Of a stretch of DNA of 9,648 nucleotides, positions 1,167-9,648 are shown piece by piece. The translations under genes were made by a program, and so were the position numbers. The DNA lies in the IMG/VR virus record IMGVR_UViG_2563366886_000004. One strand, written 5' to 3'. Numbering within the stretch: the stretch's first letter is position 1; every line of letters begins with the position of its first letter. The stretch comes from a virus. Its lineage: Duplodnaviria; Heunggongvirae; Uroviricota; Caudoviricetes. Below the pieces are notes generated by a model, which searched no databases, was not told where the DNA came from, and saw only the letters and a program-made list of their open reading frames with translations.

Positions 1167-4100
1167 ATGGGTAAAGGCAGCAGTAAGGGGCATACTCCGC
1201 GCGAAGCGAAGGACAACCTGAAGTCCACGCAGTTGCTGAGTGTGATCGATGCCATCAGCGAAGGGCCGGTTGAAGGTCCGGTGGATGGATTAAAAAGCGT
1301 GCTGCTGAACAGTACGCCGGTGCTGGACAGTGAGGGGAATACCAACATCGCCGGTGTCACGGTGGTGTTCCGGGCTGGTGAGCAGGAGCAGACTCCGCCG
1401 GAGGGATTTGAATCCTCCGGCTCCGAGACGGTGTTGGGTACGGAAGTGAAATACGACACGCCGATCACCCGGACCATCACGTCGGCAAACATTGACCGTC
1501 TGCGTTTTACTTTCGGCGTGCAGGCACTGGTGGAAACCACCTCAAAGGGGGACAGGAATCCATCGGAAGTCCGCCTGCTGGTTCAGATACAACGTAACGG
1601 TGGCTGGGTGACGGAAAAGGACATCACCATTAAGGGTAAAACCACTTCACAGTATCTGGCCTCGGTGGTGGTGGATAACCTGCCGCCGCGCCCGTTCAAT
1701 ATCCGGATGCGCAGGATGACGCCGGACAGCACCACAGACCAGCTGCAGAACAAAACGCTCTGGTCGTCATACACCGAAATCATCGATGTGAAACAGTGCT
1801 ACCCGAACACGGCACTGGTCGGCGTGCAGGTGGATTCGGAGCAGTTCGGCAGCCAGCAGGTGAGCCGTAATTATCATCTTCGCGGGCGTATTCTGCAGGT
1901 GCCGTCGAATTATAACCCGCAGACGCGGCAATACAGCGGTATCTGGGACGGGACGTTTAAACCGGCATACAGCAACAACATGGCCTGGTGTCTGTGGGAT
2001 ATGCTGACCCACCCGCGCTACGGCATGGGGAAACGTCTCGGTGCGGCGGATGTGGACAAATGGGCGCTGTATGTCATCGGCCAGAATTGTGACCAGTCGG
2101 TGCCGGACGGCTTTGGCGGTACGGAGCCGCGCATCACCTGTAACGCTTACCTGACCACACAACGTAAGGCGTGGGATGTGCTCAGTGATTTCTGCTCGGC
2201 GATGCGCTGTATGCCGGTATGGAACGGGCAGACGCTGACGTTCGTGCAGGACCGACCATCGGATAAGGTGTGGACCTATAACCGCAGTAATGTGGTGATG
2301 CCGGATGATGGCGCACCATTCCGCTACAGCTTCAGCGCCCTGAAAGACCGCCATAATGCCGTTGAAGTGAACTGGATTGACCCGGATAACGGCTGGGAGA
2401 CGGCAACAGAGCTTGTGGAGGACTCGCAGGCCATTGCCCGTTACGGTCGTAACGTCACGAAGATGGATGCGTTTGGCTGTACCAGTCGGGGGCAGGCGCA
2501 CCGCGCCGGGCTGTGGCTGATTAAAACAGAACTGCTGGAAACGCAGACCGTGGACTTCAGCGTGGGTGCCGAAGGGCTTCGCCATGTACCGGGCGATGTC
2601 ATTGAAATCTGCGATGATGACTATGCCGGTATCAGCACCGGCGGGCGCGTGCTGGCGGTGAACAGCCAGACCCGGACGCTGACGCTCGACCGTGAAATCA
2701 CGCAGCCATCCTCCGGCACCACGCTGATAAGCCTGGTTGACGGAAGTGGCAATCCGGTCAGCGTGGAGGTCCAGTCCGTCACCGACGGCGTGAAGGTGAA
2801 AGTGAGCCGGGTTCCTGACGGCGTTGCCGAGTACAGCGTGTGGGGGCTGAAGCTGCCGACGCTGCGCCAGCGCCTGTTCCGCTGTGTGAGTATCCGTGAG
2901 AACGACGACGGTACGTATGCCATCACTGCAGTGCAGCATGTGCCGGAGAAAGAAGCCATCGTGGATAACGGGGCGCACTTTGACGGTAACCAGAGCGGCA
3001 CGGTGAATGGTGTCACGCCGCCAGCAGTGCAGCATCTGACCGCCGAAGTCACCGCAGACAGCGGGGAATACCAGGTGCTGGCCCGCTGGGACACGCCGAA
3101 GGTGGTGAAGGGCGTGAGCTTCCTGCTTCGCCTGACCGTGGCAGCGGATGACGGCAGTGAGCGGCTGGTCAGCACGGCCCGGACGACGGAAACCACTTAC
3201 CGCTTCACACAACTGGCTCTGGGGAACTACAGGCTGACAGTCCGGGCAGTAAATGCGTGGGGGCAGCAGGGCGATCCGGCGTCGGTATCGTTCCGGATTG
3301 CCGCACCGGCAGCGCCGTCGCGGATTGAGCTGACGCCGGGCTATTTTCAGATAACCGCCACGCCGCATCTTGCGGTTTATGATCCGACGGTACAGTTTGA
3401 GTTCTGGTTCTCGGAAAAGCGGATTGCGGATATCAGGCAGGTTGAAACCACAGCACGCTATCTTGGTACGGCGTTGTACTGGATAGCCGCCAGTATCAAT
3501 ATCAAACCGGGCCATAATTATTATTTTTACGTTCGCAGTGTGAACACCGTTGGCAAATCGGCATTCGTGGAGGCCGTCGGTCGGGCGAGCGATGATGCAT
3601 CCGGCTATCTGGATTTTTTCAAAGGCGAGATAGGGAAAACCCATCTGGCTCAGGAGCTGTGGACGCAGATTGATAACGGTCAGCTTGCGCCTGACCTGGC
3701 TGAAATCAGGACATCCATTACGGATGTCAGCAATGAAATCACACAGACCGTCAATAAGAAACTGGAAGACCAGAGTGCGGCAATTCAGCAGATACAGAAG
3801 GTTCAGGTTGATACAAATAATAACCTGAACAGCATGTGGGCTGTGAAGCTGCAGCAGATGCAGGACGGACGCCTTTATATCGCGGGTATTGGTGCCGGTA
3901 TTGAGAACACCCCTGACGGCATGCAGAGTCAGGTGCTGCTGGCGGCGGACAGGATTGCGATGGTTAATCCTGCGAATGGCAACACAAAACCGATGTTTGT
4001 TGGTCAGGGCGATCAGATATTCATGAACGACGTGTTCCTGAAACGCCTGACGGCTCCCACCATTACCAGCGGCGGTAATCCTCCGGTATTTTCCCTGACA

Positions 4101-4646
4101 CCGGACGGGCGGCTGACGGCGAAAAATGCCGATATCAGCGGTAACGTGAATGCGAACTCCGGGACGCTCAACAACGTCACGATTAACGAGAACTGTCGGG
4201 TTCTGGGAAAATTGTCTGCGAACCAGATTGAAGGCGATCTCGTTAAAACAGTGGGCAAAGCTTTCCCCCGGGACTCCCGTGCACCGGAGCGGTGGCCATC
4301 AGGAACCATTACCGTCAGGGTTTATGACGATCAGCCGTTTGACCGGCAGATTGTTATTCCGGCGGTGGCATTCAGTGGCGCTAAGCATGAGAGAGAGCAT
4401 ACTGATATTTACTCCTCATGCCGTCTGATAGTGCGGAAAAACGGTGCTGAAATTTATAACCGTACCGCGCTGGATAATACGCTGATTTACAGTGGCGTTA
4501 TTGATATGCCTGCCGGTCACGGTCACATGACACTGGAGTTTTCGGTGTCAGCATGGCTGGTAAATAACTGGTATCCCACAGCAAGTATCAGCGATTTGCT
4601 GGTTGTGGTGATGAAGAAAGCCACTACAGGCATCACGATTAGCTGA
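1167..4646 (+). CDS. J: Host specificity protein J (central tail fiber / tail tip, receptor-binding C-terminus), 1159 aa
   Basis: ATG at 1167 with GGAG 8 nt upstream; stop TGA at 4644-4646. The N-terminus [34 protein letters not shown]... and long internal stretches match my recollection of lambda gpJ (1132 aa). Size and position after K and I fit. Confidence 0.95.
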
Positions 4647-4713: not shown

Positions 4714-5313
4714 ATGCGTAAAGTTTGTGCAGCCATTTTGTCCGCAGCCATCTGTCTGGCCGTATCCGGTGCGCCTGCATGGGCGTCTGAGCAGCAGTCC
4801 ACGCTGAGCGCGGGCTATCTTCATGCCTGGACGAACGTTCCCGGCAGCGATGATCTGAACGGGATTAACGTGAAATACCGTTATGAGTTTACGGACACGC
4901 TGGGGCTGATGACGTCATTCAGCTATGCAGGAGCCAAAAATGAGCAAAAAACGCATTACAGCGATACCCGCTGGCATGAAGATTCCGTGCGTAACCGCTG
5001 GTTCAGCGTGATGGCGGGGCCGTCTGTGCGCGTGAATGAATGGTTCAGCGCGTATGCGATGGCGGGTGTGGCTTACAGCCGTGTGTCGACTTTCTCCGGG
5101 GATTATCTGCAGGTGACCGACAATACGGGGAAAACGCACGATGTGCTGACCGGAAGTGATGACGGTCGCCACAGCAACACGTCTCTGGCGTGGGGGGCTG
5201 GCGTGCAGTTTAACCCGACAGAATCCGTGGCCGTTGATGTCGCTTATGAAGGCTCCGGCAGCGGTGACTGGCGTACCAACAGTTTCATCGTTGGTGTCGG
5301 TTATAAATTCTGA
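4714..5313 (+). CDS. lom: Outer membrane protein Lom (Ail/Lom/PagC/OmpX family 8-strand beta-barrel; lysogenic-conversion moron)
   Basis: ATG at 4714 with GAGAGG 5 nt upstream. N-terminal signal peptide [28 protein letters not shown]-terminal ...[23 protein letters not shown] ends in an aromatic residue as expected for an OMP beta-barrel and matches what I recall of lambda Lom. Located between J and stf as in lambda. Confidence 0.9.
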
Positions 5314-5339
5314 TTAGCCAGGTAACACAGTGTTATGAC

Positions 5340-5367
5340 AGCCCGCCGGTTCAGGCGGGCTTTTTTG
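5340..5367 (+). terminator. Rho-independent terminator downstream of lom
   Basis: 8-bp GC-rich stem AGCCCGCC (5340-5347) / GGCGGGCT (5354-5361) with loop GGTTCA, followed by a run of six T (5361-5366). Confidence 0.75.
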
Positions 5368-5377
5368 TGGGGTGAAT

Positions 5378-8300
5378 ATGGCAGTAAAGATTTCAGGTGT
5401 ACTGAAAGACGGTGCAGGTAAACCGGTACAGAACTGCACAATCCAGCTGAAAGCAAAACGTAACAGCACCACGGTGGTGGTGAACACGCTGGCCTCAGAA
5501 AATCCGGATGAAGCCGGGCGTTACAGTATGGACGTTGAGTACGGTCAGTACAGCGTCAGTCTGTTGGTGGAAGGATTCCCGCCGTCACATGCCGGGATTA
5601 TCACCGTATATGAGGACTCAAAGCCGGGCACACTGAATGATTTCCTCGGTGCAATGACGGAGGATGATGTCCGGCCAGAGGCACTGCGCCGTTTTGAACT
5701 GATGGTGGAAGAGGTGGCGCGTAACGCGTCCGCAGTGGCACAGAACACGGCAGCCGCGAAGAAGTCAGCCGGCGATGCCGGCACATCTGCCCGTGAGGCG
5801 GCAACCCATGCGACTGATGCTGCAGGCTCAGCACGCGCAGCCAGCACGTCAGCCGGACAGGCCGCTTCGTCGGCTCAGTCAGCGTCTTCCAGCGCAGGAA
5901 CGGCATCAACAAAGGCTACTGAAGCATCAAAAAGTGCTGCCGCTGCAGAGTCCTCAAAAAGCGCGGCAGCCACCAGTGCCGGTGCAGCGAAAACGTCGGA
6001 AATGAATGCCGCAGCATCACAAAAATCTGCGGCCACTTCTGCATCCGCCGCGACCACAAAGGCGTCAGAAGCTGCCACCTCGGCACGGGATGCGGCGGCC
6101 TCAAAAGAGGCAGCGAAATCATCAGAAACGAACGCATCATCAAGCGCCAGTAGTGCCGCTTCCTCGGCAACGGCGGCAGGAAATTCCGCGAAGGCGGCAA
6201 AGACGTCCGAGACGAACGCCAGGTCTTCTGAAACGGCAGCGGGACAGAGTGCCTCAGCTGCGGCAGGCTCAAAAACAGCGGCTGCGTCGTCTGCCAGTGC
6301 CGCGTCAACAAGTGCCGGGCAGGCCTCAGCCAGTGCCACCGCCGCCGGAAAATCGGCAGAAAGTGCCGCATCGTCTGCTTCAACAGCCACAACGAAGGCT
6401 GGCGAAGCCACTGAACAGGCCAGCGCAGCAGCGAGGTCTGCTTCCGCAGCGAAGACATCCGAAACGAACGCGAAAGCGTCGGAAACCAGCGCAGAATCCT
6501 CAAAAACGGCTGCCGCATCGTCCGCCAGTTCGGCGGCGTCATCGGCATCATCTGCGTCTGCTTCAAAAGATGAGGCGACCAGACAGGCGTCAGCAGCGAA
6601 GAGCAGCGCCACGACGGCATCCACGAAGGCGACAGAGGCAGCTGGCAGTGCGACGGCGGCAGCTCAGAGCAAAAGTACGGCGGAATCCGCGGCAACGCGC
6701 GCCGAGACAGCAGCTAAACGGGCAGAGGATATTGCATCCGCCGTGGCGCTTGAGGATGCAAGTACGACGAAAAAGGGGATAGTACAGCTCAGCAGCGCGA
6801 CCAACAGCACGTCTGAAACGCTGGCGGCAACGCCAAAGGCAGTAAAAGCAGCCTATGACAATGCAGAGAAACGTCTGCAGAAAGACCAGAACGGCGCTGA
6901 TATACCCGATAAGGGACGCTTCCTGAACAACATTAACGCGGTCAGTAAAACAGACTTTGCTGATAAGCGTGGTATGCGTTATGTGCGGGTTAACGCTCCT
7001 GCAGGTGCAATATCTGGAAAATATTACCCTGTTGTTGTTATGCGTTCTGCTGGCTCAGTAAGCGAACTGGCATCAAGGGTCATTATCACCACGGCAACGC
7101 GAACCGCAGGCGATCCGATGAATAACTGCGAGTTTAACGGATTTGTTATGCCTGGTGGCTGGACTGACAGGGGGCGTTATGCTTATGGAATGTTCTGGCA
7201 ATATCAAAACAATGAACGAGCCATCCACTCAATAATGATGAGTAATAAGGGCGATGATTTGCGCTCTGTGTTCTATGTTGATGGCGCTGCTTTCCCTGTT
7301 TTTGCGTTTATCGAAGATGGCCTGTCAATATCCGCACCTGGTGCTGATCTCGTTGTTAATGATACGACCTATAAGTTTGGGGCAACAAATCCGGCGACTG
7401 AATGTATCGCGGCGGACGTTATCCTTGATTTTAAGAGTGGGCGTGGTTTTTATGAGTCCCATTCGTTAATCGTTAACGATAACTTGTCGTGCAAAAAACT
7501 TTTTGCCACAGACGAAATTGTAGCGCGTGGTGGTAATCAGATTCGAATGATAGGTGGGGAGTATGGGGCATTATGGCGTAATGATGGCGCTAAAACTTAC
7601 CTGCTGCTTACCAATCAAGGTGATGTTTATGGTGGATGGAATACATTAAGACCGTTTGCTATTGATAACGCAACCGGCGAACTGGTTATTGGAACCAAGC
7701 TGTCTGCAAGTCTGAACGGTAACGCATTGACAGCAACAAAGCTGCAAACGCCAAGACGGGTTTCTGGTGTTGAGTTTGATGGTTCCAAAGATATTACTTT
7801 AACCGCCGCGCATGTGGCTGCTTTTGCCAGAAGGGCAACGGATACATATGCCGATGCGGATGGTGGCGTTCCCTGGAATGCCGAATCAGGCGCTTATAAT
7901 GTCACCCGCTCTGGCGACAGCTATATTCTGGTTAACTTCTATACCGGAGTCGGAAGTTGCCGGACCTTGCAGATGAAGGCGCATTACAGAAATGGTGGTC
8001 TGTTCTACCGTTCTTCAAGAGACGGTTATGGTTTTGAGGAAGACTGGGCAGAAGTTTATACCTCGAAAAATCTTCCACCAGAAAGCTACCCAGTTGGCGC
8101 ACCAATCCCGTGGCCATCAGATACCGTTCCGTCTGGTTATGCCCTGATGCAGGGGCAGACTTTTAACAAATCTGCCTACCCGAAACTTGCAGCGGCTTAT
8201 CCGTCAGGCGTGATCCCTGATATGCGTGGCTGGACGATTAAGGGCAAGCCAGCCAGTGGTCGTGCCGTATTGTCTCAGGAACAGGACGGCATTAAATCGC

Positions 8301-8779
8301 ACACCCACAGCGCCAGCGCATCCAGTACGGATTTGGGGACGAAAACCACATCATCGTTTGATTACGGCACTAAATCCACGAATAACACTGGTGCACATAC
8401 CCATAGTATTAGCGGGACAGCAAATAGTGCCGGTGCGCACCAACACAAGAGTTCCGGTGCGTTTGGTGGCCCGAACACGAGCATTTTTCCTAATGGTTAT
8501 ACTGCGATTTCAAATCCAAGCCCGTGGATTATGAGCACAACAAGCGGTAGTGGCCAGACTCGTAATGCAGGGAAGACATCATCAGATGGTGCTCATACCC
8601 ACTCGCTGTCTGGTACTGCAGCAAGTTCTGGCGCACATGCACATACTGTAGGTATTGGTGCGCATACGCACTCGGTTGCGATTGGCTCACATGGACACAC
8701 CATCACCGTTAACGCTGCTGGTAACGCGGAAAACACCGTCAAAAACATCGCATTTAACTATATTGTGAGGCTTGCATAA
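5378..8779 (+). CDS. stf: Side tail fiber protein Stf, long mosaic form (about 1133 aa from ATG 5378)
   Basis: ATG at 5378 gives [37 protein letters not shown]..., matching my recollection of the lambda Stf N-terminus. The six-frame track begins at an in-frame GTG at 5372, which has no spacer after the G-rich stretch. Stop TAA at 8777-8779. Contains an Ala/Ser/Thr-rich repeat region, a central domain with lower GC, and a C-terminal region with HxH boxes ([39 protein letters not shown]) typical of T4 gp37-like fiber tips. Confidence 0.9.
5720..6760 (+). repeat. Intragenic low-complexity / degenerate tandem repeat region of stf encoding Ala/Ser/Thr-rich modules
   Basis: A degenerate 24-nt element encoding AKTSE(M/T)NA recurs at about 5987, 6197 and 6449 (spacings 210 and 252 nt), embedded in continuous A/S/T-rich coding sequence. 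The region produces long spurious ORFs on the minus strand and in an alternative plus frame. Confidence 0.6.
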
Positions 8780-9363
8780 TGGCATTCAGAATGAGTGAAC
8801 AACCACGGACCATAAAAATTTATAATCTGCTGGCCGGAACTAATGAATTTATTGGTGAAGGTGACGCATATATTCCGCCTCATACAGGTCTGCCAGCAAA
8901 CAGTACCGATATTGCACCGCCAGATATTCCGGCAGGCTTCGTGGCTGTTTTCAACAGTGATGAGGCATCGTGGCATCTCGTTGAAGACCATCGTGGTAAA
9001 ACGGTCTATGACGTGGCTTCCGGCGACGCGTTATTTATTTCTGAACTCGGCTCATTACCGGAAAATGTCACCTGGTTATCCCCGGAAGGGGAGTTTCAGA
9101 AGTGGAACGGTACAGTCTGGGTGAAGGATACGGAAGCAGAAAAACTGTTCCGGATCCGGGAGGCGGAAGAAACAAAAAACAGCCTGATGCAGGTAGCCAG
9201 TGAGCATATAGCGCCGCTTCAGGATGCTGTAGATCTGGAGATCGCAACGGAAGAAGAGGCGTCGTTGCTGGAAGCCTGGAAGAAGTATCGGGTATTGCTG
9301 AACCGTGTTGATACATCAACTGCACCTGATATTGAGTGGCCTGCAAATCCTGTCAGGGAGTAA
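8779..9363 (+). CDS. tfa: Tail fiber assembly protein Tfa (chaperone for Stf; T4 gp38-like family)
   Basis: ATG at 8779 shares its A with the stf stop codon (TAATG), with GTGAGG 8 nt upstream; stop TAA at 9361-9363. The translation [54 protein letters not shown]... matches my recollection of lambda Tfa. Position immediately after stf fits. Confidence 0.9.
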
Positions 9364-9477
9364 TCATTGGGATTATGCCGCAGACACGTCGTATGCAGGA
9401 ACGTGCTGCGGTTAGTTTGTGAGCTTTCGATAGTGGTTGTTATTTTTGCCCTTATTTGTTCCGGAGGCCCTGGTTCA

Positions 9478-9648
9478 ATGGTCCGTCTGCCCCCTGTGGT
9501 GATGTCAGCAAAATCAGCCACTGCGCGAACCACAATAGCCCGGGAAGATGCTGAAGATCACCAGGTAAAGCTGTCAGCGCAGAAACTGGAAGAACTGCTC
9601 GCATCAATGGTTAAGGATGAGGTTGATCGCAATGATGGGATTTATTGA
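9478..9648 (+). CDS. Hypothetical small protein (56 aa), function unknown, downstream of tfa
   Basis: ATG at 9478 preceded by a strong Shine-Dalgarno GGAGG (9463-9467, 10-nt spacer); stop TGA at 9646-9648, the last three bases of the window. Translation MVRLPPVVMSAKSATARTTIAREDAEDHQVKLSAQKLEELLASMVKDEVDRNDGIY; no motif I can recognise. The longer 93-aa ORF in the track requires a TTG start at 9367 with no ribosome-binding site. Confidence 0.45.
   Translation: MVRLPPVVMSAKSATARTTIAREDAEDHQVKLSAQKLEELLASMVKDEVDRNDGIY

Follow-up and report, generated by a model that had tools for sequence, protein, structure and literature searches.

Reports that the tail fibres of lambda, Rac, P2, Mu and T4 are mosaics of exchanged modules date back to the early 1990s. 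The present analysis concerns the side tail fibre gene stf (5378..8779, + strand; ATG at 5378, 1133 amino acids [aa]) of the IMG/VR virus record IMGVR_UViG_2563366886_000004, a stretch of 9,648 nucleotides (nt) which we refer to as the window and which comprises the distal tail region of a lambdoid prophage with the genes K, I, J, lom, stf and tfa. The closest described systems are Stf of lambda (Ur-lambda; 774 aa) and StfR (b1372, NP_415890.2) of the Rac prophage of Escherichia coli K-12. The mosaic relation of the lambda, Rac, P2, Mu and T4 fibres is documented in PMC3945230 and its references 71-74. That paper also reviews an ancient exchange of fibre genes in which lambda, T4, P2 and others took part, and the homology of lambda stf-tfa and Rac stfR-tfaR has served in experiments as a substrate for recombination (PMC3945230). 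Engineered chimeras of lambda STF, fused after residues 1-393 or 1-528, are functional (PMC11338833). Finally, the RBPseg atlas contains mobile tail-fibre pseudo-domains, several of which come from distal gp34 (D11/D40/D73), and, for rV5-like phages, a mobile domain D42 that is left unexplained (PMC12143355). By its anchor, its colinearity with StfR and its gene context, the protein predicted from the window is a StfR-type lambdoid side tail fibre.

The comparison with lambda was made by blastn of the window against lambda 14000-23500 and by a three-way protein alignment of the Stf of the window, K-12 StfR and frameshift-repaired lambda Stf. DNA homology to lambda broke at 6846 and picked up again at 8096. 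In the protein alignment the left junction lay directly after the motif ATPKAVK (6847/6848) and the right junction directly before GAPIPWPSD (8095/8096). Between them a central module of 416 aa (6848..8095, +) stands in place of 147 unrelated residues of lambda Stf (aa 386-532). No homology to lambda at the DNA or the protein level was detected across 6847-8095, and the central region was not colinear with canonical lambda Stf. We consider it likely that 6848-8095 is a structural shaft cassette of the StfR-type side tail fibre which has been exchanged by recombination. Outside of the cassette lambda Stf is similar, with an N-terminal anchor of about 90% identity, an Ala/Ser rod, the ATPKAVK motif, and a collar and His-box tip of 69% aa identity; Tfa is 94% identical at the aa level and J, lom, stf and tfa follow one another as they do in lambda and in K-12 Rac. 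A second length difference resides in the rod, where 105 extra Ala/Ser-rich residues (about 6299-6613, Stf aa 308-412 in ATG numbering) have no lambda counterpart and are identical in K-12 StfR.

The two natural junctions are located 8 aa before and 4 aa after the engineered fusion points at 393 and 528, respectively. This closeness is consistent with the two motifs being permissive domain boundaries and recombination linkers. The exact map of the junctions and of three sub-modules between them (see below) is of practical value, the junctions being only a few residues away from the fusion points of functional engineered chimeras. An initial annotation of the window had proposed a domain absent from lambda Stf at 6800-8090, inserted by modular exchange between a lambda-like N-terminus and a gp37-like His-box tip. 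Its framework was right: both flanks were borne out by the alignments, the absence from lambda Stf was confirmed by break and resumption in blastn as well as by the protein alignment, the peptide it quoted is present in the encoded protein, and its boundaries were at most 50 nt off the true junctions. The change is a replacement of 147 lambda residues rather than a pure insertion, and a three-part mosaic rather than a single domain.

Nor is the module a novel insertion. Full-length Stf was colinear with K-12 StfR in one blastp high-scoring segment pair (1-1133 versus 1-1120) with 94.6% aa identity, and DNA identity to K-12 Rac was 96.5% over 5127-8415. The central segment differed from StfR by 3 aa. 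In the alignment that the annotation had suggested, Stf is not colinear with lambda Stf in its centre and is colinear with StfR throughout. The segment is the long-sequenced StfR central region of K-12 Rac and, being present in about a quarter of complete E. coli genomes, is ordinary. As a query, the 1291-nt segment was present at a coverage of at least 80% in 1306 of 5426 complete E. coli genomes, where the matching genes are usually annotated as 'stfR' or 'prophage tail fiber N-terminal domain-containing protein'.

StfR-type stf genes were also found in isolated phages. The central module was detected in nine phage-collection records, i.e. Chlobot, PhiR34_1, mEp332, Kati, 204576, ev099 (two) and 2H10 (two), and the segment was 98-99% identical in the isolated phages Chlobot, PhiR34_1, mEp332, Kati, ev099 and 2H10. 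StfR and the Stf proteins of mEp332, PhiR34_1, ev099, 2H10, Chlobot and Kati share the full-length architecture of the Stf studied here: a phage_tail_N anchor, a long Ala/Ser rod, the PF03406 motif, modules A-B-C and a gp37-like tip, followed by tfa. Two differences to Rac were noted. At the head of the tip (8408-8617) the allele is not that of StfR, the two differing in length by 13 residues, and while Rac is a cryptic remnant with an IS5 in lomR, the upstream J, lom and tail genes of the window are intact. Literature searches on StfR function and on the phages Chlobot, PhiR34_1 and mEp332 found nothing relevant except that stfR has been employed as a target for recombination. PhiR34_1, an isolated phage grown on K-12 MG1655, carries pinR-like and ynaE-like genes downstream of stf-tfa (8650-9972 in the PhiR34_1 record), just as Rac does; possibly it arose by recombination between a phage and Rac and acquired the StfR fibre locus in this way.

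The anatomy of the central segment was examined by a HMMER search with aa 519-908 against 1.84 billion representatives. The boundaries of the 3095 hits fell into three blocks, which we call modules A, B and C; the segment is itself mosaic, put together from three fibre parts that are mobile. Module A (6926..7486, +) is a globular beta-sandwich knob of about 165 aa without an assigned family. Pfam yielded no family for it even at E ≤1, and a profile of module A against the PDB gave chance matches only; antibody and nanobody matches to the profile had E ≥0.06 and were dismissed as chance. AlphaFold2 predicted a compact all-beta sandwich with confidence (predicted local distance difference test [pLDDT] 84, predicted template modelling score [pTM] 0.82). 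In BFVD, the library of viral predicted structures used here, module A matched tail fibres only, namely those of 9g-like JenK1, T5-like Vibrio phi 3, an Aeromonas T4-like gp37, rV5-like 'navn' and crAss-like fibres with Peptidase_S74. By tblastn it was present in 260 phage records from Escherichia, Aeromonas, Salmonella, Campylobacter and Vibrio, and it is carried by fibres of 9g-, P2-, T5-, rV5- and T4-like phages.

Across the phages of these five host genera, at 30-40% identity, module A retains the same invariant residues, among them N, C, E, H and S. In segment numbering they are P25, P35, T56, M65, N66, C68, F70, G72, G78, G88, E97, I100, H101, S102, Y117, A122, F123, P124 and F169; the invariant Cys and His are Stf aa 586 and 619 when counted from the GTG. 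In proteins of at least 590 aa, module A was always followed by at least 200 residues, with the exception of P0125 (780 aa, 100 residues after the module), which probably is a truncated protein. Because of these 200 or more residues we regard module A as an internal domain and not as a distal head. As a common fibre domain without a family or a structure it is what retains interest in this segment, and it marks a small gap in the fibre domain atlases.

Modules B and C have recognisable relatives. Module B (7487..7771, +) is a T4 gp34-type triple beta-helix / P4 beta-prism unit according to PF21446 (Gp34_trimer, 95.7 bits versus a cutoff of 27). Stf residues 708-779 matched residues 1036-1107 of gp34 in 4uxe and 9x3r at 1.8e-11, a region in which, according to the crystal-structure paper PMC5537660, a triple beta-helix ends, the P4 beta-prism follows and the next helix begins. 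By its Pfam score and its match to the solved structure, module B belongs with the T4 gp34 C-terminal shaft domain (4UXE/5NXF; PF21446), and it may have the intertwined trimeric beta-helix/beta-prism geometry of the latter. Module C (7772..8095, +) consists of a fibre repeat (…GVEFDGS) and then a domain of the Mu S / gp37_C type. Stf 815-910 matched residues 322-416 of the Mu fibre (8ju3) at 2e-20, and PF12604 (gp37_C) scored 27.7 bits versus a cutoff of 22.5. At the nt level module C was 95.6% identical to the myovirus Ro157c2YLVW and 90.6% to the siphovirus 9g, and it is module C alone which is shared with both. A Foldseek search with the whole 390-aa model returned the Mu fibre at 3.5e-9 and the gp34 C-terminal region (894-1289) at 8e-9.

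The left recombination junction coincides with a Phage_fiber_2 motif (6761..6883, +; PF03406, 6.8e-23, 80.4 bits). The linker ahead of module A continues this motif together with a linker like that of Mu S and P2 H. The PF03406 region is common to Mu S 5yvq/8ju3 (8ju3 at 2e-16), Stf 442-523 corresponding to Mu S 90-172, and P2-like phages showed 86-89% nt identity over 6800-6930. Thus the fibres of Mu (S/S'; 5YVQ, 8JU3) and P2 (gpH) are homologous to Stf in the PF03406 linker region and in module C. On the other hand, Mu S is a much shorter fibre (504 aa) with its own C-terminal head for binding of lipopolysaccharide (LPS), and it has neither modules A and B nor a gp37-type tip. Modules A and B were found behind lambda-type (PF08400) or P2-type (PF12571) anchors and ahead of four distal ends, i.e. 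Collar/His-box, Peptidase_S74 chaperone, Phage_tail_C_2 and Gp53-like_C. In this respect the modules are similar to the RBPseg pseudo-domains, which turn up repeatedly inside the fibres of phage families that are unrelated to each other. Homologues of module A exist in the rV5-like phages (Vequintavirinae), where D42 was reported.

Downstream of the cassette lambda homology resumes at GAPIPWPSD with a gp37-type collar, needle and head tip with His boxes (8096..8776, +), which matched the T4 gp37 tip (2xgf) at 6e-82 and contains PF07484 (Collar). We measured nonsynonymous (dN) and synonymous (dS) divergence of stf against K-12 StfR, PhiR34_1 and strain 200177, the prophage of which, adjoining the trp-yciEFG region, was the best match of the whole window among complete E. 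coli genomes (96.5% identity). The head of the tip (8408..8617, +; Stf aa 1011-1080) was hypervariable with indels and a dN of 0.45-0.93, versus a dN of at most 0.03 in every other part of stf, and the allele of the window was unlike both the K-12 and the lambda allele. The dS of the cassette was 0.01-0.09, that of its flanks 0.12-0.30 (N-terminus 0.23-0.25, collar 0.13-0.18, C-terminal end 0.23-0.30 in two of three relatives). With 16 synonymous (Sd) and 1 nonsynonymous (Nd) difference to K-12 StfR, the cassette is the least diverged part of stf among the relatives compared. Its several-fold lower dS suggests a recent spread of the cassette among alleles by recombination, and by its divergence 8408-8617 is likely to be the determinant of receptor specificity. 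A conserved module next to a hypervariable tip weighs against a specificity-determining role of the module. Specificity is probably a property of the tip, as it is for T4 gp37 and lambda Stf, and the behaviour of the cassette is that of a conserved shaft shared only recently.

How might such a shaft work? In a trimer, the cassettes of the three chains would together make up a longer shaft with knobs, linking the lambda-type anchor and the Ala/Ser rod to the distal tip. The cassette would lengthen and stiffen the trimeric fibre and supply folding units between rod and tip. Module C would lead into the gp37-like collar, needle and head, and the tip, folded with the help of Tfa, would carry the receptor specificity. 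The cassette was most likely exchanged by recombination at the two short motifs, ATPKAVK, which is part of PF03406, and GAPIPWPSD, with which the Collar domain starts; both are conserved across otherwise unrelated fibres. Its low GC content at third codon positions (GC3) is probably a trace of passage through AT-richer phages.

Base composition was the starting point of the initial annotation, which called the central domain compositionally foreign from hand counts of about 35% GC at 7201-7260 and about 70% at 2821-2880 in J. The counts are exact (0.35 and 0.70). Just 0.33% of all 60-nt stretches have a GC of 0.35 or less, and the lowest value of the whole window, 0.333, starts at 7189 inside the central segment. 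GC was 0.473 for 6800-8090 versus 0.597 for 5372-6799 and 0.549 for the whole window. GC3 was 0.42 (6926-7486), 0.35 (7487-7771) and 0.44 (7772-8086) within the central segment; elsewhere it was 0.60 in the stf N-terminus, 0.51 in the Ala/Ser rod and 0.67 in J. A chi-square test on GC3 of the central segment gave p=0.0016 versus the rest of stf and 1.5e-17 versus J. The profile of GC and codon usage across stf, the check the annotation had proposed, thus is not flat, and GC3 drops significantly in the central segment. Could the dip nevertheless arise by chance or from amino-acid composition in a canonical lambda Stf that received no module? In the Ala/Ser-rich rod GC at second codon positions (GC2) is 0.81, and this amino-acid bias accounts for much of the GC contrast with upstream stf. 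Yet 6847-8095 has no lambda counterpart at the DNA or protein level, and GC3, which is independent of amino-acid content, falls significantly as well. The lambda alignments and the GC3 analysis refute a stf without a module, which we hold to be next to impossible. As for the claim of foreignness, the shift in codon composition stands (GC3 0.35-0.44), its confinement to the segment does not: the distal tip and tfa have a low GC3, too (0.47). It is the distal half of the fibre locus that is compositionally unlike the lambda-like tail body, with a minimum in its middle.

With respect to function, two observations favor a structural role of the cassette. It is the least diverged part of the gene, and the invariant residues of module A are the same in phages of very different hosts, a behavior not seen with glycan-specific sites. 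The initial annotation had raised the possibility that the module has a separate binding or enzymatic activity against a surface glycan. Module A might indeed be an accessory lectin-like knob which, besides the tip, provides a second, lateral contact to LPS or another surface glycan. In favour of this, the domain is predicted with confidence to be autonomous, an all-beta sandwich of compact build, and it has invariant polar residues; in addition, R-pyocin fibres possess lectin-fold knobs, and the 390-aa model (aa 519-908, not module A alone) matched 6cl6 and 6ct8 with a probability of 0.96-0.98. Yet glycan-specific sites would be expected to vary across five host genera, module A is near-invariant among E. 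coli alleles while the tip varies, and in complete fibres, P0125 aside, it is interior and never at the distal end. Matches of the central segment to lectins stayed below significance. We regard a lectin-like knob as rather unlikely; of the annotation's proposal a binding role of module A keeps this small chance but is unsupported. An enzyme acting on a surface polymer (a depolymerase, an esterase/deacetylase or a peptidase) is very improbable. The invariant Cys, His, Ser, Glu and Asp positions of module A would fit, and Foldseek returned faint matches to eqolisin/neprosin glutamic peptidases at a probability of 0.2-0.3, but no sequence match to any enzyme family was obtained in Pfam, PHROG or the PDB. 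Features of tailspike-type depolymerases were not seen in the segment, neither a right-handed parallel beta-helix nor a recognisable hydrolase or lyase fold, so that an enzymatic activity was refuted at the level of fold searches. The search for folds in 6800-8090 thus returned a gp34-type beta-helix/prism (module B) and a Mu S-type domain (module C), and no depolymerase or hydrolase.

Several points weigh against a structural shaft cassette acquired by recombination. The structure models are AlphaFold2 monomers and the trimeric arrangement is one that we infer. Module A is without a characterised relative, and the searchable literature yielded no experiment on StfR-type fibres. The low GC3 which the cassette has in common with tip and tfa means that composition does not mark it as a separate transfer event, and megablast against phages revealed no AT-rich donor with near-identical DNA, the full segment being present in lambdoid phages only. 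Furthermore, the strongly conserved polar residues of module A (N, C, D, R, E, H and S) could mark a ligand or metal site instead of a core that is purely structural. That this set constitutes a functional site, either a lateral glycan pocket or a metal-dependent site for trimerisation or for docking of fibre or tail components, has in our view a minor probability. If so, StfR-type fibres would have a second interaction surface in addition to the gp37-like tip.

The proximal parts of the fibre are lambda-like. The N-terminal anchor (5378..5779, +) belongs to PF08400 (phage_tail_N, 2.5e-71; 238 bits versus a cutoff of 26.6) and matched the solved N-terminus of lambda Stf, 9e7m, at 5.4e-49. It is followed by the Ala/Ser-rich low-complexity rod (5780..6742, +), which was delimited in the three-way alignment. 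Tandem Repeats Finder (TRF) reported no tandem repeats in stf at a score of at least 40, i.e. the Ala/Ser region is of low complexity and not a regular DNA repeat. At 5545-6782 several long open reading frames (ORFs; 100-259 aa) overlap this Ala/Ser-rich region in other frames and on the minus strand, comparable to the annotated orf206b of lambda. Most likely they are artefacts of a GCN-rich, stop-poor composition. The ORF listing lets stf itself begin at GTG 5372 (1135 aa) rather than at ATG 5378.

The neighbouring genes are K (7-561, cut at the window start), I (459-1106), J (1167-4646) and lom (4714-5313) upstream of stf, and tfa (8779..9363, +) downstream, which encodes the tail fibre assembly chaperone (PF02413, Caudo_TAP, 5.5e-45). 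J was about 97% identical to lambda J across the first approximately 800 aa. In its C-terminal part (3567-4646) lambda DNA homology was lost after 4196 and GC3 was down to 0.54, and the C-terminal receptor-binding domain (about 4251-4646; Pfam Ig_GpJ_C) had 19-50% identity to lambda J. Probably, the primary receptor differs from that of lambda J. The product of lom, an Ail/Lom outer-membrane protein, was 44% identical to lambda Lom; a part of the gene (4916-5129) had 90.7% DNA identity to Rac lomR.

Downstream of tfa lambda homology ends at 9420. The frame at 9421-9648, which is open to the end of the window, had no Pfam match. In strain 200177 the corresponding place carries the annotation of a DUF4376 pseudogene remnant, which may be what is left of a second tfa or of an invertible fibre segment.

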